Both the position numbers and the translations under genes were made by a program. Below the pieces are notes generated by a model. The model saw only the letters and a program-made list of their open reading frames with translations. It searched no databases and was not told where the DNA came from. A DNA stretch of 32,000 nt, from contig NC_008698.1 in assembly GCF_000015225.1 (NCBI RefSeq), positions 1,290,001 through 1,322,000 on the forward strand. Direction: 5' to 3'. Below, one piece after another: positions 3,047-25,592 of this stretch. Every line of letters begins with the position of its first letter. Position 1 is the first letter of the stretch. This DNA is from Thermofilum pendens Hrk 5. GTDB taxonomy: Archaea; Thermoproteota; Thermoprotei; Thermofilales; Thermofilaceae.

Positions 3047-3496
3047 TTGCTTTCCGTGTTGCCGCGGGAGGTGGAGGAGAGGGTTCGGGAGGTTTGCGGC
3101 GAGCTGAGGAGGAGGGGCTTCGACTGCGACGTCTCGCCGGAGGAGTTCGCCGCGTACATGGAGGCCGACACCTACACCGGGGACAGGGCGGGGCTGTGGG
3201 GCGTCGTGGGCAACAGGTACCTCTTGATCCACGAGCTCGCGGAGATAAGTGCGCTCAAGAGGATGGGGTACAGGGTCGACCGGGGCGTCTTGAGGAGGGC
3301 CTACCCGGACTCCTACAGGGCCCACCTGGAGGCTATGGACGTCGAGCTGAGGGTCGCCGCTGAGGAGGGGGACCTCGGGTGGGTGGAGGCTAGGCTGAGG
3401 GACCTGGCCGGCTACCTCTCGGACCCCCTCCTGCCCGAGGGGCTCGCGGAGGAGGTGGGGCGCCTGCTCCGCAAGTACTCGGGCTACGTGCGCTAG
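3047..3496 (+). CDS. Hypothetical protein (149 aa)
   Basis: ORF with a TTG start at 3047; GTG 3056 is an alternative. A TATA-like TTTTAAG lies at 3030-3036. Composition is coding-like and no family was recognised. It contains LLIHELAEISALKRMG, an HExxE motif rather than canonical HExxH. It sits immediately upstream of the CARF gene. Confidence 0.5.
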   Translation: MLSVLPREVEERVREVCGELRRRGFDCDVSPEEFAAYMEADTYTGDRAGLWGVVGNRYLLIHELAEISALKRMGYRVDRGVLRRAYPDSYRAHLEAMDVELRVAAEEGDLGWVEARLRDLAGYLSDPLLPEGLAEEVGRLLRKYSGYVR

Positions 3497-3528
3497 GTTT
3501 ATCTACTCCGGGTTTTTTCCTGGAGCGT

Positions 3529-4374
3529 ATGGCGGGGGTGCTCGTAGTCTCCACGGTGGGTACGAGCATACTGGGCAACGTGGAGACCAAGTGGCTGGAC
3601 AGGGTCCCCGAGAAGTACCGCGGCCTCGTCAAGGGTTCTTCGAGGCTCAGCGTCACGGACGAGAGGCAGAGGGAGTTCGAGGCGAGGGCCCACCCCGGCG
3701 ACGAGCTCTTCGACGCCGTCTACAGGGTCCTGGAGGCTAGCCCCAGGGAGGCTAGCGCCGAGCTTAACGCTCTGCTAGGCTTCCTGGAGAGGAGGAAGGG
3801 TAGCCTTGCGGGCGCGGACGTCGAGCTCATGTTCTACTCGACCGACACTGGTACGGGGTACTTCTGCGCCAGGCTCGTCGAGAGGTACGCGAGGGAGAGG
3901 CTCCGGGGGGCGCTGGGCGGGGCGAGGGTCCAGGTCCAGGAGCCCGTGAAGCTGAAGAAGTTCGGGTGGGGCTACGAGTACTTCCACGAGGCCCTCCTCG
4001 ACATGGTGGACAAGGCGGCTAGGCTGATGGCGAACAAGAAGAGGAGCGGGTACAGGGTCTACGTTAACGCTACGGCTGGCTTCAAGGTGGAGGCGGCGTA
4101 CCTGACGCTGGTCTCGCTACTCGTAGGCGCGGACTCCGTGTTCTACGTGCACGAGGCTACGAGGGACGTCATCGAGCTACCCGTGCTACCCCTCGGCTTG
4201 AAGGCGAAATACGCCGATGCCTTGCGGGAGCTGAGGGAGCCCACCCCCAGGGGCGCCCTGGAGAGGAGGGGCGTAAGCGTGGAGGAGCTCGAGGAGAAGG
4301 GCCTCGTCGAGGTCAGGGACGGGCTGGTAGTTGCGAGGGAGTGGGTCAGGAAGCTCCTCGAGCTAGTCGAGTAG
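3529..4374 (+). CDS. CARF-domain protein (APE2256/Csm6-N-terminal type) with a short C-terminal helical/wHTH-like extension
   Basis: 281-aa ORF with an ATG start and a TATA-like GTTTATCT about 27 nt upstream. The N-terminus VLVVSTVGTSILGN and the later VYVNATAGFKVEAAY match the two CARF ligand-pocket motifs (xTxGTS and NxTxGxK). There is no HEPN Rx4-6H motif. The C-terminal ~60 aa (RGALERRGVSVEELEEKGLVEVRDGLVV) look wHTH-like, which is inference. Confidence 0.7.
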   Translation: MAGVLVVSTVGTSILGNVETKWLDRVPEKYRGLVKGSSRLSVTDERQREFEARAHPGDELFDAVYRVLEASPREASAELNALLGFLERRKGSLAGADVELMFYSTDTGTGYFCARLVERYARERLRGALGGARVQVQEPVKLKKFGWGYEYFHEALLDMVDKAARLMANKKRSGYRVYVNATAGFKVEAAYLTLVSLLVGADSVFYVHEATRDVIELPVLPLGLKAKYADALRELREPTPRGALERRGVSVEELEEKGLVEVRDGLVVAREWVRKLLELVE

Positions 4375-4445
4375 GAGCGTTGCCGCGCCGCGGCCCGGCG
4401 CCGGGTGTCCGTAAAGGTTTTTAGGCTTGCCGAGGTCTAGTCTCG

Positions 4446-5411
4446 ATGGCCTCCAGCCTTAAAGGCGAGATGCTCAGGCTGCTCAGGGAGGACGAGGAGT
4501 TTAGGTACGCGGTAGTGGGGCTTCTGGGGCTCGAGGATCTAAGGGCGGAGTTGAAGGGGTTGAGGGAGGCTGTCGAGAGGCTAGTGGAGGCACACGCGAG
4601 GGCCGAGGAGAGGCTGTCCAGGCTAGAGGCGGCGGTGGCCGGGCTCGGGGAGGCTGTTTCCAGGCACAGCGAGGCTATCGCTAGGCTAGAAGTAGCCGTA
4701 GCCAGGCACGACGAGGCAGTAGCTAGGCTGGAGGCGGCTGTAGCTAGGCTGGCGGAGGCTCAGGCGAAATCCGAGGAGAGGCTTGCCAGGCTGGAGGAGG
4801 CTGTGGCTAGGCAAAGCGAGAGCATAGCGAAGCTGGAGGCGGCAGTGTCTAAGCACAGCGAGGTAATAGCCAGGCTGGAGGCGGCAGTAGCCAAGCACGA
4901 TGAGACGATAGCTAGGCTAGAGAAGGCCGTAGCCAAGCACGACGAGTCCATCGCTAGGCTGGAGAAGGCTATAGCTAGGCACGACGAGGCAATAGCTAGG
5001 CTCGAGGAGGCTGTGAGGGGGCTTGCCGCGCAGGTCGGCAGGCTCAGCGAGGCAATCGGCTTCGGGCTGGAGGACGTGGCGGCCCTCATGGTCCCGGGCT
5101 GGCTGTACAGGCACCTGGGCGTGGAGGTGGAGCTGGGCAGGGGCGTCGTGAGGGTGGACGGGGAGGAGGTGGAGGTCGACCTGTACGGGGAGGGGACCAG
5201 GGAGGGGAGGAGGGTCTTGGTCGTAGGCGAGGTGAAGGCGAGGATTTACAGGGACGACGTGGACAAGTTCTACCAGAGGGTCTACGCGAGGCTCGCCGGG
5301 AGGGAGGCGGGGGAGGTCCTGGGGGTTCTGTTCGGCTTCTTCGTGCACCCAGCCGCCGACGAGAGAGCCCGGGAGCTAGGGCTCTACGCGCTCGCACCTT
5401 ACAAGCGCTGA
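4446..5411 (+). CDS. Coiled-coil protein with a C-terminal PD-(D/E)xK-like domain (paralog of 23241-23969)
   Basis: 321-aa ORF with ATG start and a TATA-like element at about 4414-4425. There is an N-terminal box MLRLLREDEEFRYAVVGLLGL, then about 150 aa of heptad/14-mer repeats. The C-terminus reads GEEVEVDLYGEG...RRVLVVGEVKARIYRDDVDKF, which fits a D...(D/E)xK nuclease-core pattern. Confidence 0.75.
   Translation: MASSLKGEMLRLLREDEEFRYAVVGLLGLEDLRAELKGLREAVERLVEAHARAEERLSRLEAAVAGLGEAVSRHSEAIARLEVAVARHDEAVARLEAAVARLAEAQAKSEERLARLEEAVARQSESIAKLEAAVSKHSEVIARLEAAVAKHDETIARLEKAVAKHDESIARLEKAIARHDEAIARLEEAVRGLAAQVGRLSEAIGFGLEDVAALMVPGWLYRHLGVEVELGRGVVRVDGEEVEVDLYGEGTREGRRVLVVGEVKARIYRDDVDKFYQRVYARLAGREAGEVLGVLFGFFVHPAADERARELGLYALAPYKR
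4617..5057 (+). repeat. In-frame tandem repeat (21/42-bp period) encoding ARLEAAVA(K/R)HDExI units
   Basis: Residues 58-204 are built from alternating heptads ARLEAAV / A(K/R)H(D/S)ExI. Five near-identical 42-bp units occupy 4785-4994. The repeats also generate spurious antisense ORFs (4686-4898, 4760-5089). Confidence 0.85.
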
Positions 5412-5458
5412 GACTGTGCTCCCGCGCGATGCGAAGAGGGGTTGGTGCGCTGGTCTCT

Positions 5459-6478
5459 TCACACGCCAAGTATCTTCTTCAGAATCTCTCTATACGAGGG
5501 TATTTGCCATGCATAGTACTCCCCTATGCCGATCTCCTTGTCTGGCTTCACATCCTCCCTCGCTATCGTCGGCATTCCTTTGTATATGATTAGATTGCGT
5601 CTTAACAGTATCCTCTCCGCCTCTCCCATCTCTACAGACGCCCTATGCCATATGTTGTCGGGGTCTTCGATAATCAGCTTAACTTGCTCCACGAGCCCTC
5701 TGCCTCTAACCTCCTTGGCTACTGAAACCAGCCTTGCGGTTGCATCCTTGATCATGTCGTCTATGCTCCACCCATACGTTACCTTAAGCTCTACCAGCTT
5801 CCCAGGGTTTCCACCCAGCAATCTCCAAACAGTTTCGAAGTCTATGCTACTTGGTGGGTTAAGCTCTTCGAACAGCTCCTCGAAACCCCTTTTATCAAGG
5901 TTCCATAGGAGAGCTATGTACGAGTGCCTATGTCTCAGTACAAGGTTTAGGCTTTCCCCCTCAGACGTTGTAACAGCCATGTTTATAGCTCTTGGCTTGT
6001 ATTCCTCGTAGAGCTTCCACATAGCTTCGTAGAGCCACTTAACATACAGCTCGATCTGGTCGAGCCCAACGGCTTTTGCAACATCGTCAACCGCTATGAG
6101 TATGTAGCTTTCCTCCAGCTTTCTCTTCGTAAGAGCTTTTTCAACGAGAGTTACGATGGATTCTGCTAGCGCTCTCCCAACCGCGAGACCCGAGAACCTC
6201 TCAACAAGGCTTAGAAGAGTCTCAGTTGCTATTCTCACAGACTTCGATGAGAGAAAAGCCTTTGACAGCGACTCTCTCTCCAAAGCATCGATGTATATAG
6301 CTATAGCGTCTTCACCGAAGAACTCCTCAAACCTAGAAACAAACTCTTTTAGGAGCCTCGTCTTCCCGCAGCCTTCGGGACCATAGAGATAGATGGGGGT
6401 AGCTCTCTGGGATGAGCACCAAGACCTTAGAGAATCGATCTCCTTGACACGGTTAACAAACCTCACATAAAAAGACAT
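5459..6478 (-). CDS. Archaeal-type AAA/STAND-like ATPase (Arch_ATPase-like), on a low-GC island
   Basis: ORF 5459-6496. ATG 6478 (MSFYVRFVNR...) is preceded by GAGGGG; the TTG at 6496 is an alternative. FVNRVKEIDSL...IYLYGPEGCGKTRLL provides Walker A, and ILIAVDDV provides Walker B. This is the typical N-terminal layout of the archaeal ATPase family. GC content and codon usage are clearly lower than in the neighbouring genes. Confidence 0.75.
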   Translation of the reverse strand: MSFYVRFVNRVKEIDSLRSWCSSQRATPIYLYGPEGCGKTRLLKEFVSRFEEFFGEDAIAIYIDALERESLSKAFLSSKSVRIATETLLSLVERFSGLAVGRALAESIVTLVEKALTKRKLEESYILIAVDDVAKAVGLDQIELYVKWLYEAMWKLYEEYKPRAINMAVTTSEGESLNLVLRHRHSYIALLWNLDKRGFEELFEELNPPSSIDFETVWRLLGGNPGKLVELKVTYGWSIDDMIKDATARLVSVAKEVRGRGLVEQVKLIIEDPDNIWHRASVEMGEAERILLRRNLIIYKGMPTIAREDVKPDKEIGIGEYYAWQIPSYREILKKILGV

Positions 6479-6695
6479 TTTTACGCCCCTCTGCAACCAC
6501 CCGCCTCAGCACCTGTTTAGCATCAATTTATTTCAACGCTTAAAGCTTTTACCGTTGGCTTTTGTTTTCACTGCAAATAGAAGCCTTGCTCCCTAAGGCG
6601 AGGAGGGGGTCAGAGATGCTTACTAGCAACCATTCCCAGCTCTTTGTAAAGCGCGGCTCGAGCACCGGTACGCATAGGAGGATCGGGGGGTTGAC

Positions 6696-6866
6696 GTGTG
6701 GAGGGTTGTTGAGGAGGCTTTGAGGAAGGCTGTCGAGGAGGAGAAGCTGAGGAGGGTCGAGGAGGCTCTGAGAGGCTTCGCTGAGAGCATGGGCGATCTT
6801 CCGGTCGAGGAGTGGGTGGAGGTCGTGAAGGCTTCCAGGAGGGGCAGGATTCCCGGTGCTCGTTGA
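6696..6866 (+). pseudogene. 5'-truncated RHH/VapB-type antitoxin remnant
   Basis: From GTG 6696 the frame reads VWRVVEEALRKAVEEEKLRRVEEALRGFAESMGDLPVEEWVEVVKASRRGRIPGAR*. This corresponds to the helix-2 and C-terminal part of the same antitoxin family as 230-439. The N-terminal beta-strand part is missing, and an in-frame TAG sits at 6675-6677. The remnant overlaps the downstream PIN start. Confidence 0.35.
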
Positions 6867-7266
6867 TGCCTCGGCCCTCTATCCTTTCATGAAGTTGTCC
6901 CGTGATCCCCGCGCGCTAGCTCCTCGAGGGCGCCGCCGTGCTCGACTTAACGCTGTACGAGGTTCTTAACGCCGTTGTAGTGGAGGGGCGCAGAGGGCTT
7001 CTCAGGGACTCTCGCTCGGCTGTATCGTCGCTAATCGAGTACTTGTAGGTGGTACGAGTCGAGCCCGAGGATCTCCAGGCCATAGCTGAGGCGGCTGTAG
7101 AGTTCGGCCTCACGGCTTACGACGCGGCTTACGTCCACTACGCTAGGGCACGAGGCTCGTTACTAGTGACAGGGAGTTGCTGGAGAAGGCTGGGGGTGTC
7201 GCCGTATCGGCGGAGGAGTGGTTGAGGGAGACTCTGCACCGCAGTAACCAAGGACGGAGCGTCTAA
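6856..7266 (+). pseudogene. vapC: Decayed PIN-domain toxin gene (vapC) with two frameshifts and one in-frame TAG
   Basis: PIN-like segments are found in shifting frames. VLVDASALYPFMKLSRDPRA runs from 6856. LLEGAAVLDLTLYEVLNAVVVEGRRGLLRDSRSAVSSLIEYL-TAG(7046)-VVRVEPEDLQAIAEAAVEFGLTAYDAAYVHYARARGSLLVT runs from 6920. RELLEKAGGVAVSAEEWLRETL...* runs from 7171 and ends at TAA 7264-7266. No intact ORF is listed in the track for this region. Confidence 0.55.
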
Positions 7267-13732: not shown

Positions 13733-16297
13733 CTAGGCGGCGGGCGCGGGAGGCCTTTCCGCTTCGAAGAGGTAGCGCGAGACGGGGTGCAGGTCCCCTA
13801 CTCTCTCGACAAGCCTCTCGGAGACAGAGATACACCCATGCCTAACCCAGTCGAGTAGCCTGAGCGCCCCCTCCACGTCGTAGAACCTGTGCTTCGCCTG
13901 CCTCACGCACTCTTCGCGCAGGAGCTTGTCTTCCTCTAGGGTCTTCTCGCTTATGCGGGAGTACCCGAAGCTCCTCCTGAGCTCGAACGCTACCACGTAG
14001 ACGTAGGGCGAGCTCTTCACGGCCTCCTCGACTTCCCTTCGGCCCGCGCCCAGGAGGTACTCCAACGGGTCGAAGCTGGCCTCGTGGCGGACCAGGATGC
14101 CGTAGCTCCTCGGGATCACCTTGCTCACACTCCCGCTACTCCAGAGCAACGCCGCCAGGGTGTTCGCGATGTAGTCGCCGAAGGGGTAGAGGAGAACAGT
14201 CGTCGTGGCGCGAGGCTCTGGGGATACGCCCAGGAACCTGTCCAGCGCGCCTAGAGCGCTGGCCTTAACTCTGTCAACGACCATCCTGCGGGGGCCGGGC
14301 ATGGGCACGCCGCGCGCCGAGAGCTCCTCTGCGAGCACGGCGAGGCCCCTCCTAGCCTCCTCGTCGAGCCTGAACGCCACTCCGCCGGATCTCCACTCGC
14401 CGAGTGAGGTGCCTCTCCTGTGAAGCCTCGCGGCCTTCGAGAGGAAGCGGTACACCTCTAGCCCCACGCTCTGAGGTGCCAGCACGTAGCCGCCCCTCCA
14501 CACGGGGATGGCGAAGCGGTCAGAGGCCTCGGGCTCTACGATCACAAAGCGCCCCCTCAGCTCCTTCACCCTCCAGCACTTACCCCCCAGCCTGATGACA
14601 ACGCCCCTCTTCATCAGCCTCAGGTTGACTACGTCCACGACGCCCACCCTCTCCCGCCCGTGCCTCACCTCCAGCTCGCTCCTCTCGGGGATCATCGTGA
14701 AGAACGCGCCGATCTTACGCCACGCCTCGGGGAAGCGCCCCCCGAGCCTGAGCACCCTCGCCCTCTCGCCGTAGACGTCCACGACTTCTCTCTCCTCGAC
14801 GAGGCCCCTCTCCTCCAGCACCCTCAACGCCTCTCTAGCGCCGAGGCCCCAGGACGCGGGTACGTGCGAGAGGAGCGAGCCCAGGAGCTCTGCGACAGCC
14901 TGAGCGCCCGCCTTGTCCCCGTGCTGTAGTACCAGGGCTAGGGCCTGGCGCAGGGCTAGGTCCATTGCCGGCGGAGGCCCTCTTCTCGCTCCGAACGAGC
15001 CCCTGCCGAGCATGGACAGTATGGCCGCGGACTCCACGAGGTCGTTCATGTCGAGGCACACGAGAGTCCCCCTAGCGGGCTCGCCGGGCCTGTGCGAAGC
15101 CCTCCCGACGCGTTGCGCAAAGTACGCCGGCAGGGACGGGGACCCGACCTGGAAGACCCTTTCAACGGACCCCACGTCTATCCCTAGCTCGAGGGTCCTA
15201 GTGCACACGACGGCTTTCACCTCGCGGTCCTTGAACTTCCTCTCAGCCTCCCTCCTCTTCGACGCGCCCATCGAGCCGTGGTGCACGAGTATATCGCCCA
15301 GCCCCCTCTTCTCGAGCTCCGCGTGGAGTTCCTCCGCCTCGGACCTCGTGTTGACGAATACGAGGTACCCGCTACCCTTCCCCATTAGCTCTTCGAGCGC
15401 GTCTACGAGCTCCTCAGCGCTCCTACCGCGGCGTAGCACGACCTCCGCGTCAATCCTCCTGAGCCCGGGATCCCGCACGACCCGGACCTTCCCGTCCGAC
15501 CCGCCGAAGAGCCGCGCTATCCTGCGGGGGTCGCCGACTGTCGCGGAGATGAGTATCCTCTGGAGCCTCGGGATCCCGAAGGTCGCCTTCAGCCTCTCGA
15601 GGAGGACGAGGAGGTGCAACCCCCTCTTCGACTCTGCGAGCTCGTGGACCTCGTCCACTATGACCCACCTCAGCTTCGCGAGGTGCTTGCGGAACCTGTG
15701 CTTGGTGTCGAGGATTGCCTCCAGGGACTCCGGGGTGGTAACGAGGACGAGCGGGGGCTTCTCGGCGAGCTTCGTCTTCTCGTTCTTCTTGATGTCGGCA
15801 TGCCACACGCCCACGAGGTAGCCGTCGCCGAGGGCCGAGCGGACGTAGGATCTAAGCCTCCTCGCGACGTCGCTACAGAGCGCCCTCAGGGGGGTGATGT
15901 AAAGCACGTAAACCCCTGGCTCCAGCCTCCCAGCCTCCCTCTCGGCGGCCAGGAAGTGTAGAACGGGCAGGAAGGCGCACTCAGTCTTCCCGGAGCCCGT
16001 CGGCGCCACTAGGAGGACGTTCTCCCCCCTGAGTATCCTGGGTATCCCGAGGACCTGGATCGGCGTCGGCTCCCTAAGCTCGCGCTCTCTCCCACGGATC
16101 GCCTTCCTCACCGCGGGGTGCAGAGCGGAGAAGGGGTACTCGGCCCCCCTCAGGGTAGCCGTGAGCCTCAGCCTAGCGGTGATCGAGAGCTTGCGCAAGC
16201 GTAGCGCCAAGGCGGACAGCCACGGCTCCGAGTAGACGCCGGCGAGCCACGCGAGGAAGGAGGCGTAGGCGCGTAGCTTCGAGACAACCCCGCTCAA
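13733..16297 (-). CDS. Lhr-type superfamily-2 DEAD/DEAH-box helicase
   Basis: 854-aa ORF. Motifs present are PTPIQ (Q motif), VAPTGSGKT (I), DEVHEL (II), SAT (III), HHGSM, TRTLELGIDVG (V) and QRVGRASHR (VI), followed by a long C-terminal extension. The start was read as TTG 16297-16295, overlapping the cas3'' TGA (TTGA). The start codon is uncertain, but no alternative ATG or GTG lies upstream of the Q motif. Confidence 0.8.
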   Translation of the reverse strand: MSGVVSKLRAYASFLAWLAGVYSEPWLSALALRLRKLSITARLRLTATLRGAEYPFSALHPAVRKAIRGRERELREPTPIQVLGIPRILRGENVLLVAPTGSGKTECAFLPVLHFLAAEREAGRLEPGVYVLYITPLRALCSDVARRLRSYVRSALGDGYLVGVWHADIKKNEKTKLAEKPPLVLVTTPESLEAILDTKHRFRKHLAKLRWVIVDEVHELAESKRGLHLLVLLERLKATFGIPRLQRILISATVGDPRRIARLFGGSDGKVRVVRDPGLRRIDAEVVLRRGRSAEELVDALEELMGKGSGYLVFVNTRSEAEELHAELEKRGLGDILVHHGSMGASKRREAERKFKDREVKAVVCTRTLELGIDVGSVERVFQVGSPSLPAYFAQRVGRASHRPGEPARGTLVCLDMNDLVESAAILSMLGRGSFGARRGPPPAMDLALRQALALVLQHGDKAGAQAVAELLGSLLSHVPASWGLGAREALRVLEERGLVEEREVVDVYGERARVLRLGGRFPEAWRKIGAFFTMIPERSELEVRHGRERVGVVDVVNLRLMKRGVVIRLGGKCWRVKELRGRFVIVEPEASDRFAIPVWRGGYVLAPQSVGLEVYRFLSKAARLHRRGTSLGEWRSGGVAFRLDEEARRGLAVLAEELSARGVPMPGPRRMVVDRVKASALGALDRFLGVSPEPRATTTVLLYPFGDYIANTLAALLWSSGSVSKVIPRSYGILVRHEASFDPLEYLLGAGRREVEEAVKSSPYVYVVAFELRRSFGYSRISEKTLEEDKLLREECVRQAKHRFYDVEGALRLLDWVRHGCISVSERLVERVGDLHPVSRYLFEAERPPAPAA

Positions 16298-22212: not shown

Positions 22213-22923
22213 TCACAGGAGGAGCCTTCCGAGGTCCGTCGCGACGTAGCCGCCATCGACTTGCCTCACGAGCCCCGCTTCCTCCATCCTCTTCAGGTAC
22301 CTGAACACGGTGCTCCTATCCTTGCCCAGCAACCCGCCGAGGTCGCTTGCGCCTAAGGGGCCGCTCTTCTCCAGGGCTGAGAGCACCTCGAGCCAGGCCT
22401 CGGGGACGCCTACCCCCAGCACCCTCGAGAGGCGCGGCAACCGCAAGGCCCTCCCCTGCCCCTCCAGGTACACCTCGACCTCGGGGTCAACCCTCCACCT
22501 GGTGAGCAAGTAGGCCGTCAGAACCGCGATGCCCAGCGCCCTCATGCCGCCCGTAATCGAGATCCTCACCCTTTTGTCCTCGAGCCCCCTGAACAAGGAC
22601 TTCACGTTGATAACTGCTGCAACGAAGTCGTCGAGCGGGACCTCCCTCTTCTCCACGGAGAAGCCCGGCCTCCTCGCCAAGCCCATCATGCCGACTACGC
22701 GCTGGAACTCCAGCCACGCGCGCTCAGCCCTCTCGTCCGGGAAGCCAGCGGTCAGCACCACCACCCTAGCGCCCTCCGCCAGCCCCTCCGACGCCGCCGA
22801 GGCAACAGCGCTTATCAGGGGCCCCGGCTCGAAGCCCAGCGTCAACACCAGTGCATCGATCACGCGTATAGCCCCGCCCCGCCCCCTAAATAACCTCGCG
22901 GTCGGCGCCCCTAGTGTCATCAC
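22213..22923 (-). CDS. csa3: Csa3-type CARF + winged-HTH transcriptional regulator
   Basis: 236-aa ORF. ALVLTLGFEPGPLISAV and ISITGGMRALG are Csa3 CARF motifs. The C-terminal LGASDLGGLLGKDRSTVFRYLKRMEEAGLV is a wHTH. It lies immediately upstream of the I-A operon. Confidence 0.8.
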   Translation of the reverse strand: MMTLGAPTARLFRGRGGAIRVIDALVLTLGFEPGPLISAVASAASEGLAEGARVVVLTAGFPDERAERAWLEFQRVVGMMGLARRPGFSVEKREVPLDDFVAAVINVKSLFRGLEDKRVRISITGGMRALGIAVLTAYLLTRWRVDPEVEVYLEGQGRALRLPRLSRVLGVGVPEAWLEVLSALEKSGPLGASDLGGLLGKDRSTVFRYLKRMEEAGLVRQVDGGYVATDLGRLLL

Positions 22924-23240: not shown

Positions 23241-23969
23241 CTACGTGTATATCTCTACCCCTAGGATTCTCGCGTCTTCGAGCGCCCTAGGGTCGACGTA
23301 GGGCGATACCATGATCAACCTCGGCTTGACTCTGTTCACCTTCTCGTATAACTCTCCGATCCTCCGGAAAACCGCTACGTCTCCTCTTGAAACGCTCGAC
23401 TTTACCTCGATCAGTATGTGCTCGCCGTCTTTCACGGCGACGTCTACCTCGACCATTGCCGGGTGCCCGTAGACCTCGCCTTCCCTATCGTAGTACATCC
23501 ACCTTTCAACCTTCCCGGCGCCGAGGATCCTCTCAATAACCCCCCTCATGCCCTCTCTGAAGGCGGACTCCGACGCTATACCCCATCTAGCGCCGAGCGC
23601 GTCTATCCTCCTCCTGAGCTCGTCGAAGCCTCTGTTGAAGTCCTCTCTCAGCCCCTTGAGCTCTGCCTCGATCGCCTCGAACCTCTTGTACGCCTCCTCC
23701 CACTTCCTGTTGTTCTCCTCCCATCTCTTATTGTTCTCTTCCCACCTCTTGCTATTCTCCTCCCACATTCTCCAGTTTTCTTCCCACCTTTTGCTGTTCT
23801 CTTCCCACCTTCTGTTCTCGAGCTCGACGAGCTTGTTGAAGTCCTCCCTCAGCTTCTTCAGCTCGCCCAGTACTGTGTCGAGGCCCAGGAGGCCGGCTAC
23901 GGCGAGCCTAAACTCCTCGTCCTCCCTGAGTAGGCGCAGGAGCTCGGCTTTAAGAGCTTGCACGGCCAA
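23241..23969 (-). CDS. Coiled-coil protein with a C-terminal PD-(D/E)xK-like domain (paralog of 4446-5411)
   Basis: 242-aa ORF with a TTG start and a TATA-like TTTTTAAG (plus strand 24001-24009) upstream. It has the same N-terminal box (LLRLLREDEEFRLAVAGLLGL) as 4446-5411. The stalk consists of WEEN heptads. The C-terminus reads GHPAMVEVDVAVKDGEHILIEVKSSVSRGDVAVF, a D...ExK pattern. Confidence 0.75.
   Translation of the reverse strand: MAVQALKAELLRLLREDEEFRLAVAGLLGLDTVLGELKKLREDFNKLVELENRRWEENSKRWEENWRMWEENSKRWEENNKRWEENNRKWEEAYKRFEAIEAELKGLREDFNRGFDELRRRIDALGARWGIASESAFREGMRGVIERILGAGKVERWMYYDREGEVYGHPAMVEVDVAVKDGEHILIEVKSSVSRGDVAVFRRIGELYEKVNRVKPRLIMVSPYVDPRALEDARILGVEIYT
23682..23807 (-). 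repeat. In-frame 21-bp tandem repeat encoding six WEENxxx heptads
   Basis: Residues 55-96 read WEENSKR WEENWRM WEENSKR WEENNKR WEENNRK WEEAYKR. On the plus strand this appears as a repeated ttctc(c/t)tcccac unit. Confidence 0.85.
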
Positions 23970-24087
23970 TGCTTAGCACCACGTCTAGTTCCCGTTGGGG
24001 CTTAAAAACGTAGCCAAGCCGTTTCCTCGCAACCGGCGAGAGGCGTTGCCGTTGAAGGCATTCGGCGAGGCTGGAGAAGTACGTCGC

Positions 24088-24957
24088 CTAGCCCTGCGCC
24101 CTTGCGTGTCCCCCGGGCTTCCGGGGCGCGGCGCGCAGGCGCCTCGGGGGGCCTAGCGGTGACATCTCGACGTGGCCGAAGCCTATGCTCCTCGACCTCC
24201 CTATGCCGAAGCGGAGCGCGAAGGCCATCAGCCTCCTGAAGTCCTCCGCGTACTCGGACTTCGTGTCTAGTAGCTCGTAGGCGACGAAGCCCACGAAGCC
24301 CCTCTCGGTCGCGGGCTTCCCGTCCCTGACGGTGTAGAGCGCGGTGACGGGCCTAGCGTCGTAGTCGAGCTCGGCCAGCGCCCTGAGGGCCCACGCGTGT
24401 ATCCTGCCCGGAGTAGCCTTCGCCAGCCTGACGCCTCTCATCGCCGCGTCGTAGGCTAGGTGCGCCAGTGCGAGCGGGAGGTCCGGGACGAGCCTGTACC
24501 TCCTCCTCGGACCCCCGGCTTTGAGCAGCGACCCCCTGCCGGGGACGGGCACGAGGGTTGGGGTCAGGAAGCGCAGGGCGAACTTCTCGGGGACATCCTC
24601 CCTCAGCGCCGAAGCCTCGAAGACCTCGACCTCGGCTACCCTAGCCCTCATCTCCGCCGCCCCGAACACGAAGACAGCCTCCTGCCTCGGCAACCCGGGG
24701 GCGCCGTCCCAGAGCATCGAGACCCTCGCCCTCAGGACCTCCCCCTCCCTCGCGAGCAGCGGCGCCTCCTCCCCGGCGAGCTTGTACAGCGGCCTATCCC
24801 CCCTGAAGAGCACGGAGAAGGAGGCCCTCCTACCCATGGTCTCCGGATCTAGCCCCCAGAGAGCCGCGAAGGCTGTCCTCGTCACCTTGCTCGTAAACGG
24901 GGGTAGCAGGGCGTCCCTCAAAGGCACGATCTCCAAGCGGGCGGTAAAGACGTACAC
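24088..24957 (-). CDS. cas6: Cas6 endoribonuclease
   Basis: 289-aa ORF with a GTG start; a TATA-like TCTTATAG (plus strand 24979-24986) lies about 25 nt upstream. The C-terminal glycine-rich loop FGIGRSRSIGFGHVE fits the GxGxxxxxGxG pattern of Cas6. It lies divergently next to the CRISPR leader. Confidence 0.7.
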   Translation of the reverse strand: MYVFTARLEIVPLRDALLPPFTSKVTRTAFAALWGLDPETMGRRASFSVLFRGDRPLYKLAGEEAPLLAREGEVLRARVSMLWDGAPGLPRQEAVFVFGAAEMRARVAEVEVFEASALREDVPEKFALRFLTPTLVPVPGRGSLLKAGGPRRRYRLVPDLPLALAHLAYDAAMRGVRLAKATPGRIHAWALRALAELDYDARPVTALYTVRDGKPATERGFVGFVAYELLDTKSEYAEDFRRLMAFALRFGIGRSRSIGFGHVEMSPLGPPRRLRAAPRKPGGHARAQG

Positions 24958-25222
24958 GTAGGAGAAAGTGGCGAGCCCCTATAAGAGCATACCGCCGTAA
25001 ATTCCCGGCAGAGGTCGGGATTTCGATTTTCTGTTTACGAATCCCACTCGACGGGAAGAATCCCTGTTGAAAATACTTCCCACAAATTCCCGATCTCTGT
25101 GGGGAATTTCCCGTGCCTGTTTTCGAAGCCTCCCATGGGTAAACTTTGTCAAAGAGGCAGTTTTGCAGGCTTCGACTCACTGAGAAAAGAATTTATAGAC
25201 CCTCTGCCGTGAAAAGTGGTCG
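24958..25222 (+). promoter_or_regulatory. CRISPR leader with promoter (TTTATA at 25192-25197), shared with the divergent cas6 promoter
   Basis: A 265-nt AT-rich spacer. TTTATA lies 26 nt before the first repeat and is preceded by an A-rich BRE-like GAGAAAAGAA. Orientation is supported by the repeat 3' end ATTGAAAG and by the degenerate repeat lying at the far end of the array. Confidence 0.6.
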
Positions 25223-25592
25223 GAAGCAACTGTGAAAGCATTGAAAGAGAAGCTTAGGTTCTACATTCTCGTCGCGCGCGTGAGAGATGGAAAGAAGCAA
25301 CTGTGAAAGCATTGAAAGGACGCCGAGGCGAGCCGCCTCAGGGCGTCGTTCGTGCCGAAGCAACTGTGAAAGCATTGAAAGGACAGGGAGTTGCCGCTCA
25401 CGCGCAACCCGCGCTCCGCGAGCGCCGCGAAGCAACTGTGAAAGCATTGAAAGGGGGCGTCACGGCTTACACCCCGCGTATCCTTTCGAGGAGAAGCAAC
25501 TGTGAAAGCATTGAAAGTTTCGTAGTCCGCACAGTGGCCATGTGAATTCTCTTGATAATTCCATGCAGAAGCAACTGTGAAAGCATTGAAAA
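25223..25592 (+). CRISPR. CRISPR array: 6 repeats of GAAGCAACTGTGAAAGCATTGAAAG (25 bp), 5 spacers
   Basis: Repeats start at 25223, 25294, 25357, 25429, 25493 and 25568. The first five are identical; the last ends in A instead of G. Spacer lengths are 46, 38, 47, 39 and 50 nt. The repeat 3' end ATTGAAAG matches the 8-nt crRNA 5' handle known from archaeal type I-A/III systems. Confidence 0.95.

Follow-up and report, generated by a model that had tools for sequence, protein, structure and literature searches.

A length-variable tryptophan heptad ladder in the predicted stalk of a PD-(D/E)XK nuclease family protein encoded among CRISPR-Cas genes of Thermofilum pendens

The subject of this study is Tpen_1359, a gene of the archaeon Thermofilum pendens Hrk 5 that lies within a 32,000-nucleotide stretch of contig NC_008698.1 (positions 1,290,001 to 1,322,000 of the forward strand; hereafter "the window") and encodes an unusual tryptophan-rich heptad repeat. 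The gene (ABL78756.1 / WP_011753021.1, assigned by exact-sequence look-up) corresponds to an open reading frame (ORF) of 242 codons at positions 23241-23969 of the minus strand and begins with a TTG start codon. It is flanked by cas6 and csa3, both encoded on that strand, with gaps of 118 bp to cas6 and 317 bp to csa3, and lies 1.7 kb from cas10 and 1.25 kb from a six-repeat CRISPR array at 25223-25592, in agreement with the ~1.2 kb given by an earlier sequence-only reading of this DNA. A type I-A operon follows downstream of Tpen_1359, while the array and the cas10 module lie upstream (Table 1). Within the 118-bp gap after cas6, a TATA-like element, TTTTTAAG, occurs 32-39 nt upstream of the TTG start, and this position suggests that Tpen_1359 may have its own promoter.

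Tpen_1359 is currently annotated as a "PD-(D/E)XK nuclease family protein" and was earlier listed as "Protein of unknown function DUF1626". Pfam matches were obtained for DUF3782 (PF12644) at residues 87-170 (E = 9.4e-27; 93.4 bits, cut-off 24.4) and for PDDEXK_10 (PF07788) at residues 172-239 (E = 3e-26; 91.6 bits, cut-off 21.2). This stalk-then-head order, with both models above their gathering scores, identifies it as one of the DUF3782 + PDDEXK_10 proteins (COG5493), bearing out the initial view of a nuclease-like protein with a helical stalk. These proteins are archaeal and in some cases bacterial, and Tpen_1359 is an ordinary member that shows no family-level difference from the published ones: a search of 5.8 billion proteins returned 2,753 homologues at E ≤ 1e-3, and the family occupies 331 loci in species-representative genomes, where the closest match has 65% identity. 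Literature and databases already cover Tpen_1359, its family, the idea of a stalk, and the CRISPR-neighbour flag. DUF1626 was placed in the PD-(D/E)XK superfamily with its N-terminal coiled coil noted and T. pendens among its hosts (Knizewski 2007, PMC1913061), a later survey of the superfamily lists the family as of unknown function (Steczkiewicz 2012, PMC3424549), and DUF3782 has been described as the coiled-coil stalks of "prokaryotic endonucleases", with a trimeric stalk fragment solved from a related protein (Lupas laboratory, Hartmann 2016, PMC4786415). Neither PHROGs nor a tblastn search of phage and plasmid collections gave a match to Tpen_1359, and its structural matches in BFVD were generic restriction-endonuclease folds, so that we found no evidence for a virus- or plasmid-borne gene.

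The most distinctive part of the protein is a 21-bp tandem repeat detected by Tandem Repeats Finder at 23694-23814 (5.8 copies, 76% matches, score 109), which places tryptophan at residues 55, 62, 69, 76, 83, and 90. The seven-residue spacing had been read from the sequence beforehand, and it is far from a chance pattern, as a six-step i+7 run of tryptophan has an expectation of ~6e-7 at the protein's own Trp frequency. The units read, in order, WEENSKR, WEENWRM, WEENSKR, WEENNKR, WEENNRK, and WEEAYKR: of the six WEENxKR copies originally described, five are strict WEEN units and the sixth is a degenerate WEEA. At the DNA level the units have 11-18 of 21 bases in common and their differences are mostly synonymous, which indicates that the WEEN pattern is kept at the protein level and is not the product of a fresh duplication. 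The same observation bears on the possibility that the reading frame is a by-product of the tandem repeat, with the real gene on the other strand or the region non-coding altogether. On the plus strand, ORFs of 171 and 142 residues do overlap the region (23418-23933 and 23548-23976), and we rejected them as genes, their translations being low-complexity S/L/P strings. Only the minus-strand frame yields two Pfam domains well over their cut-offs, its catalytic residues are kept in thousands of homologues, and the synonymous differences among units point to selection on the protein; a non-coding artefact can hardly be the explanation.

We next consider the ladder across the family. It is neither special to Tpen_1359 nor the strain-specific expansion that the sequence-only reading had allowed for: the ladder recurs, with 1 to 13 units, in nearly all of the best 120 of the 2,753 relatives and is a standard module of one large family clade. 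Among 80 loci from species-representative genomes, picked by motifs outside the stalk, 18 carry at least three ladder units (Desulfurococcales, Caldisphaera, Ignisphaera, Thermofilum/Thermofilales, and Vulcanisaeta), and the remaining loci have the same ends around other repeats, including KLREDMN heptads, ILKRLDxHDxKFxE 14-mers, EEHSKRIEELSKRI, LQEQV, and others. Closely related alleles, with 93-100% identity in the rest of the protein, carry different numbers of ladder units (e.g., 13/7/4, 9/5, 7/3, and 4/3/2), which implies that whole heptads, i.e., 21-bp units, are gained and lost on short time scales. Overall, the alignments identify the Trp ladder as a common, length-variable module of this clade, and the homologue comparison supports the idea of a modular, fast-changing spacer: stalk length and repeat type vary, and the N-terminal box and catalytic residues stay. 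The distance from the N-terminal box to the conserved ALGARWG motif ranges from 47 to 344 residues, with Tpen_1359 at the modal value of 107. For 151 distinct stalks (drawn from proteins P0001-P0201 and loci L001-L080), length modulo 7 was strongly non-uniform, with 88 in one class, the next two classes offset by 3 and 4, and classes 2, 5, and 6 together holding 135 (chi-square p = 3e-54), although this signal is partly inherited, as relatives differ by heptad indels, and overstates the independent constraint. This distribution suggests that the angle between head and N-terminal box around the stalk must stay constant.

Stalk and head modules were also shown to be shuffled across the family. 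With just the ladder as query, a search of 1.84 billion cluster representatives gave only 69 matches at E ≤ 1e-3. P0182 (244 residues) combines the N-terminal box and a 5-unit ladder with a head of the type found in a second family member of the window, the paralog at 4446-5411 (BLASTP E = 5e-47 to that paralog), and P0136 (338 residues), a remote match, combines the box and a 20-unit ladder with a head of the same type. Four other proteins (P0152, P0156, P0171, and P0189) have a different N-terminus followed by the ladder and DUF3782/PDDEXK_10, and the ladder is also found on bacterial-like relatives. Finally, P0139, P0140, P0144, and P0175 (~190-230 residues) begin with a small helix, continue with 7-12 WEENxKR-like heptads, and end in a coiled coil, with no nuclease head or Pfam domain found in any of the four, and recall the headless bacterial stalk proteins of Hartmann et al. 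2016 (PMC4786415). As a separate observation, the motif III lysine of P0136 is replaced by threonine (GEVT), a variant noted by Knizewski 2007 (PMC1913061).

The two copies in the window illustrate the same modularity, in a weaker form than first proposed. As the sequence-only reading had stated, the N-terminal box is common to both (BLASTP, 47% identity over 101 residues, E = 4e-18) and the stalks differ, with 42-bp / 14-residue units in the paralog according to Tandem Repeats Finder and the 21-bp ladder in Tpen_1359. The matching C-terminal domains also claimed at that stage proved harder to recover: BLASTP missed the likeness and the paralog C-terminus has no PDDEXK_10 Pfam match, but a profile comparison restricted to the C-termini aligned them over 66 columns (probability 87.5%, E = 3.6e-6), pairing EVEVD with VEVDV and GEVKA with IEVKS, and the full-length comparison reached 98.7%. 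A profile match with none by Pfam or BLASTP indicates that the heads are distant relatives from different subfamilies, so that "keeping both ends" holds for the N-terminal box and is too strong for the head. A swap of the repeat module was thus right in spirit, and is better documented by P0182, where the ladder stands on a paralog-type head. The family is multi-copy within genomes, in a Vulcanisaeta sp. as in T. pendens; in the former, a second DUF3782/PDDEXK_10 gene (L089:9837-10466) was observed 3 kb from the Trp-ladder copy. The paralog itself (plus strand) lies between a CARF gene (Cas_APE2256; 3529-4374, plus strand) and a gene for an archaeal PF01637 ATPase (5459-6496, minus strand), and homologues of this ATPase were also noticed near family members at three other loci (L032, L007, and L045).

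We then examined the heptad register of the ladder. An unbroken i+7 column runs over 12 heptads, from V48 through the six tryptophans W55-W90 to F97, L104, F111, L118, and L125, and is accompanied by an i+3 column of N58, N65, N72, N79, N86, and A93, followed by I100 and L107. The tryptophans thus keep the phase of the canonical "a" residues that precede and follow the ladder, which assigns Trp to heptad position "a" and Asn to "d". Across 578 homologue units, the consensus is W (100%), E (88%), E (94%), N (71%, with A in 19%), a variable residue, K/R (97%), and R (83%); a conserved Asn at "d" next to a variable "e" position fits a structured core seam, and from this register we infer that the Trp residues would occupy the core of an oligomer. 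In parallel coiled coils, layers of Asn at "d" are known as a polar motif that recurs in the core (PMC4786415). The same study described a different peculiarity for crenarchaeal DUF3782 stalks, namely nonads and beta-layers with the motif [aliphatic]-A-T-K-[polar]-[DE] (PMC4786415). Tpen_1359 contains no [LIVM]ATK motif and the ladder periodicity is strictly 7, which sets it apart from nonad/hexad beta-layer stalks, and we found no description of a Trp/Asn heptad ladder or of its copy-number polymorphism in the searchable literature.

The C-terminal part of Tpen_1359 was evaluated from an alignment of 23 diverse homologues (A1), which also served as input for an AlphaFold2 model with a mean predicted local distance difference test (pLDDT) score of 84.7. 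Invariant positions in A1 include D17, F20, G26, and G29 in the N-terminal box, the ALGARWG motif, and E134, D176, and E188, with K190 kept in at least 90% of the sequences; the predicted catalytic signature E...D...ExK is therefore intact, as judged from the alignment, and the 24-residue N-terminal box is the most conserved segment of the family. The model consists of two short helices followed by a continuous helix of ~120 residues (30-149), with block-mean pLDDT of 89-95 across residues 41-100, ladder included, and by a head that runs through three strands (154-161, 171-180, 183-189), helix 195-212, strand 217-221, helix 227-236, and strand 238-241. It replaces an earlier single-sequence prediction in which the head was poor (pLDDT 36-56 over residues 130-180). 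In the A1-based model, the predicted fold of the C-terminus (residues 154-241) is a restriction-endonuclease-fold head, and its best solved neighbours by Foldseek search of the PDB were EndoMS/NucS, VC1899, Can2, and Cdn1 (each at probability 1.0 over ~105 columns, E = 2e-3 to 6e-3). No solved family member was detectable by sequence, a profile search of the PDB returning coiled-coil noise alone (chemoreceptors and designed bundles), and a scan against NCBIfam gave only sub-threshold SMC/Rad50-type coiled-coil matches.

The closest solved structures to the head are those of the mismatch endonuclease NucS/EndoMS (5GKJ, 5GKE, and 2VLD; 105-109 columns, 16-19% identity), and a sequence-profile link between DUF1626 and DUF91 has already been published (PMC1913061). 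Tpen_1359 nevertheless differs from NucS in having no N-terminal DNA-binding domain of the NucS type and no PF01939 match, with the 120-residue helical stalk in their place; E-values are only 2e-3 to 6e-3, similarity is confined to ~105 head columns, and the two-domain architecture of NucS is absent. The CARF effectors Can2, Card1-type VC1899, and Cdn1 (8BAO, 1XMX, and 9U49), which occur in CRISPR loci, have the same PD-(D/E)XK head fold. However, no CARF family was detected in Tpen_1359 by Pfam or NCBIfam, and its N-terminal 150 residues are predicted to be helical. Without a CARF sensor, Tpen_1359 cannot read cyclic oligoadenylate as Can2, Card1, and Cdn1 do.

A different activity has been attached to this gene in defence-system resources. 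Tpen_1359 serves as exemplar for C3a181. This family, a putative accessory of type III CRISPR systems, is represented by a 3-member cluster that is labelled "diadenylate cyclase" in Table 2 of Shah et al. 2019 (PMC6546367), and the corresponding PADLOC model (PDLC01085) matches residues 4-242 with E = 9e-98. The label itself, in Shah et al. 2019 and in PADLOC, is all that speaks for a diadenylate cyclase. At E ≤ 1, Pfam returned DUF3782, PDDEXK_10, and coiled-coil noise with no DAC/DisA_N, NCBIfam gave no such domain, the AlphaFold2 model combines a helix with a restriction-endonuclease fold, and its Foldseek neighbours are nucleases. We rejected the label on domain content and consider a cyclase activity next to impossible: with no cyclase domain in Tpen_1359, the label looks like a propagated annotation error, which probably arose from a coiled-coil artefact in a profile search.

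Next, we evaluated how often the family is linked to CRISPR-Cas systems. In the 1.05 Mb surrounding 80 relatives, we detected no homologue of the Csa2, Csa3, Csa4, Cas6, Cas10, or CARF proteins of the window and no true CRISPR array. The "arrays" that a simple repeat-spacing scan reported at six of these loci (L025, L033, L037, L050, L071, and L075) were discarded, each lying inside the stalk-coding region of the family gene. As an observation in its own right, the 50-70 bp coding tandem repeats of homologue stalks mimic mini CRISPR arrays and could give false CRISPR calls in metagenomes. No cas gene was found in five annotated genomic or metagenomic contexts of Trp-ladder homologues, which instead include housekeeping or HEPN, MNT, and PIN genes. 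In a census at ~75 loci of the two ORFs closest to the family gene in either direction (262 ORFs), the 140 nearest included 10 HEPN, 6 PIN, and, among MNT-type nucleotidyltransferases, 4 Polbeta and 3 NTP_transf_2 genes; a linkage of HEPN/MNT with DUF1626 nucleases was noted previously in the literature. A cas-related gene was present within two genes at only 2 of the ~75 loci, in one case a cas3'/cas3'' neighbour (Thermofilum sp.) and in the other a Csx1-like match (PADLOC). The cas linkage of the family was thus shown to be weak, as is the CRISPR role implied by the sequence-only reading. We conclude that the family behaves as an inhabitant of defence/toxin-antitoxin islands that lies next to CRISPR genes now and then, perhaps more often in Thermofilum.

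Taken together, these results lead us to propose, with a probability of roughly 55%, that Tpen_1359 is a PD-(D/E)XK nuclease that forms oligomers through a length-variable stalk with a Trp/Asn core, at home in defence/toxin-antitoxin islands and with no obligate CRISPR function. Parallel chains would assemble into a homo-oligomeric coiled coil, with Trp ("a") and Asn ("d") layers taking turns in its core along the ladder, as a trimer by family precedent or as a dimer by analogy with NucS/Hjc heads, and the stalk would hold two or three nuclease heads at a set distance and phase from the N-terminal box. The latter, common to the paralogs, is a probable docking or nucleation element. The ladder is a length-variable spacer in which whole 21-bp units come and go and stalk length shifts, with heptad phase preserved, and the stalk may act as a phase-keeping spacer between the box and the heads. 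Tpen_1359 would then be a metal-dependent DNA endonuclease expressed from a stand-alone gene, with a possible role in genome conflict, and its location among the CRISPR-Cas genes of T. pendens may reflect the habit of the family to reside in defence/toxin-antitoxin islands.

Several points weigh against this proposal, and two of them shape the alternatives. The first concerns the stalk. The placement of Trp in a core derives from the register, the structure prediction being that of a monomer, and the modulo-7 signal carries the shared inheritance described above. For every member of the family, the nuclease activity, its substrate, the oligomeric state, and the biological role are predictions, and NucS/Hjc-type heads act as dimers whereas the sole solved family stalk is trimeric. 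Above all, the ladder offers one hydrophobic residue per heptad, and its E/K/R pattern would equally suit a stable single alpha-helix. The stalk might accordingly be a rigid monomeric helix held by E-to-K/R i+4 salt bridges, exposing to solvent a Trp stripe, flanked by Lys/Arg, for the binding of a ligand such as a membrane interface or, through stacking on its bases, nucleic acid, with its length serving as a ruler. Positions 2-3 (E/E) and 6-7 (K/R), each predominantly conserved in the 578 units (88-97%), form an ideal i/i+4 salt-bridge pattern, headless and largely-ladder proteins do occur (P0139, P0140, and P0144), and single-sequence AlphaFold2 returned a straight, isolated helix with pLDDT of 94-98, which says little since a monomer prediction cannot show oligomers. 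Set against this are the 12-heptad column in phase with canonical a/d positions on both sides of the ladder, the Asn kept at i+3 by 71% of the units, which a structured "d" layer would call for, next to an i+4 position that varies freely, and the experimental demonstration that family stalks are coiled coils (PMC4786415). On balance, the exposed single helix is a credible but rather unlikely account, and we retain the oligomeric stalk as the preferred reading.

The second concerns CRISPR-Cas. Two paralogs lie inside one 32-kb CRISPR-Cas cluster of T. pendens, one of them adjoining a CARF gene, and C3a181 is just over the type III association cut-off of Shah et al. (25.55 against 24; PMC6546367). 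In addition, a member with an LQEQV-type stalk in Thermofilum sp. KUA_Bin21 (L065; 6579-7193) adjoins both cas3' (4573-6363; Cas3a1, E = 4e-42) and the HD gene cas3'' (3815-4576) in a neighbourhood spanning 3815-7193, which hints that adjacency to type I-A systems recurs within Thermofilum. The same contig was also seen to carry a homologue of the window ORF at 666-2273. Tpen_1359 could thus be a dedicated CRISPR-Cas accessory nuclease, as C3a181 membership and its PADLOC match would have it, acting together with one of its neighbouring modules, type I-A or type III, for instance by degrading invader DNA after effector triggering. Its same-strand position between cas6 and csa3, close to the array and cas10, and the likeness of its head to the nuclease domains of Can2 and Cdn1 would be in keeping with such a function. 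Yet the Can2 likeness is that of a generic fold (E ~6e-3), no CARF, SAVED, or other sensor domain was found in Tpen_1359, and the promoter-like element and the gaps on either side would set the gene apart from its neighbours. The family census points in the same direction, with cas-related genes near few loci, no homologue of the window Cas proteins near the 80 relatives, and housekeeping or HEPN/MNT/PIN genes in the five closest long-contig contexts. The cas neighbourhood across divergent hosts that underlies C3a181, a cluster of three members with a marginal score, was found in T. pendens alone and not at the relatives. We therefore consider a dedicated CRISPR function improbable, and favour a defence/toxin-antitoxin-island nuclease of a family whose association with CRISPR-Cas genes is occasional.

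A bolder version of the oligomeric stalk is that the WEENxKR ladder forms a natural "tryptophan zipper", with Trp(a)/Asn(d) layers stacked over up to 20 heptads, perhaps involving at least four chains or core ions. The heptad polymorphism might then be selected, e.g., in a virus arms race, for tuning the distance of the head from the N-box dock, with recruitment to type I-A/III systems possible in Thermofilum. We offer this as speculation, and regard it as unlikely in its full form. The nearest precedents are a designed tryptophan-zipper pentamer (1T8Z; Liu et al. 2004, cited in PMC4619341), which has Trp in the heptad core as proposed for the ladder but is man-made and carries Trp at both "a" and "d", where the natural ladder has Trp-a with Asn-d, and the layers with which trimeric adhesin stalks bind anions through Asn at "d" (Hartmann 2009, cited in PMC4786415), which have the Asn-d of the ladder but Ile/Val at "a". 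The ladder differs from both as described there in its natural combination of Trp-a and Asn-d for 1-20 consecutive heptads.

These results are no breakthrough, and their value differs between fields. For coiled-coil biology, a natural Trp-"a"/Asn-"d" pattern over many heptads falls outside the usual sequence rules, and its occurrence in hyperthermophiles with natural copy numbers of 1 to 20 gives studies of structure and stability a set of graded lengths to start from. For annotation, the analysis corrects the propagated "diadenylate cyclase" label of C3a181 in a defence-system database and finds the CRISPR association of the family weak; the ladder is of moderate interest for coiled-coil specialists and of low interest for CRISPR biology. 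For archaeal biology, it describes a very large family (2,753 matches, 331 loci) in which an intact predicted nuclease site is joined to a stalk of polymorphic length, and whose genes tend to have HEPN/MNT and PIN genes around them.

Table 1 Features of the Tpen_1359 locus and its surroundings, in window coordinates.
Feature	Coordinates	Strand	Basis
CDS Tpen_1359, 242 aa	23241..23969	-	ORF list, exact look-up, 2,753 homologues
N-terminal box, aa 7-30 (KAELLRLLREDEEFRLAVAGLLGL)	23880..23951	-	Conserved columns, BLASTP against paralog
Trp heptad ladder, aa 55-96, six 21-bp units	23682..23807	-	Tandem Repeats Finder, unit table, 578-unit logo
Canonical heptads after ladder, aa 97-125	23595..23681	-	Heptad print-out, AlphaFold2 helix
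DUF3782 match, aa 87-170; includes ALGARWG (23580-23600) and E134 helix	23460..23711	-	Pfam, invariant columns
PDDEXK_10 predicted nuclease head, aa 172-239	23253..23456	-	Pfam, AlphaFold2, Foldseek
Predicted catalytic signature D176 (23442-23444), E188 (23406-23408), K190 (23400-23402)	23400..23444	-	Alignment
Motif I candidate E134	23568-23570	-	Invariant in alignment
TATA-like TTTTTAAG	24001..24008	-	Read from sequence
Paralog, 321 aa: N-terminal box, 14-aa-repeat stalk, distant head	4446..5411	+	ORF, Tandem Repeats Finder, BLASTP, Pfam, profile comparison
csa3 (CARF + winged helix-turn-helix regulator), downstream, same strand	22213..22923	-	Pfam Csa3_N and HTH families
cas6, upstream, same strand	24088..24957	-	Pfam CRISPR_Cas6
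CRISPR array, six repeats, GAAGCAACTGTGAAAGCATTGAAAG	25223..25592	+	Repeat search, k-mer scan

Two further observations were made in the window. At the end of the type I-A operon, the helicase gene at 13733-16297 (minus strand; 854 residues) encodes a BrxHI/SngC/DpdJ-like protein (PADLOC, E = 1e-106) and not Cas3. A homologue of this helicase (E = 2e-99) adjoins the gene for the Trp-ladder nuclease in one Caldisphaera genome and lies ~2 kb from it in another (L005:1384-4224; L002 ~3205-4188), a link that may be coincidence given that the orientations differ. In the CRISPR array, the final repeat (25568-25592) has A where the others close with G. The repeat ends in ATTGAAAG on the plus strand, so that transcription probably proceeds in the direction leading away from cas6, from a leader in 24958-25222.

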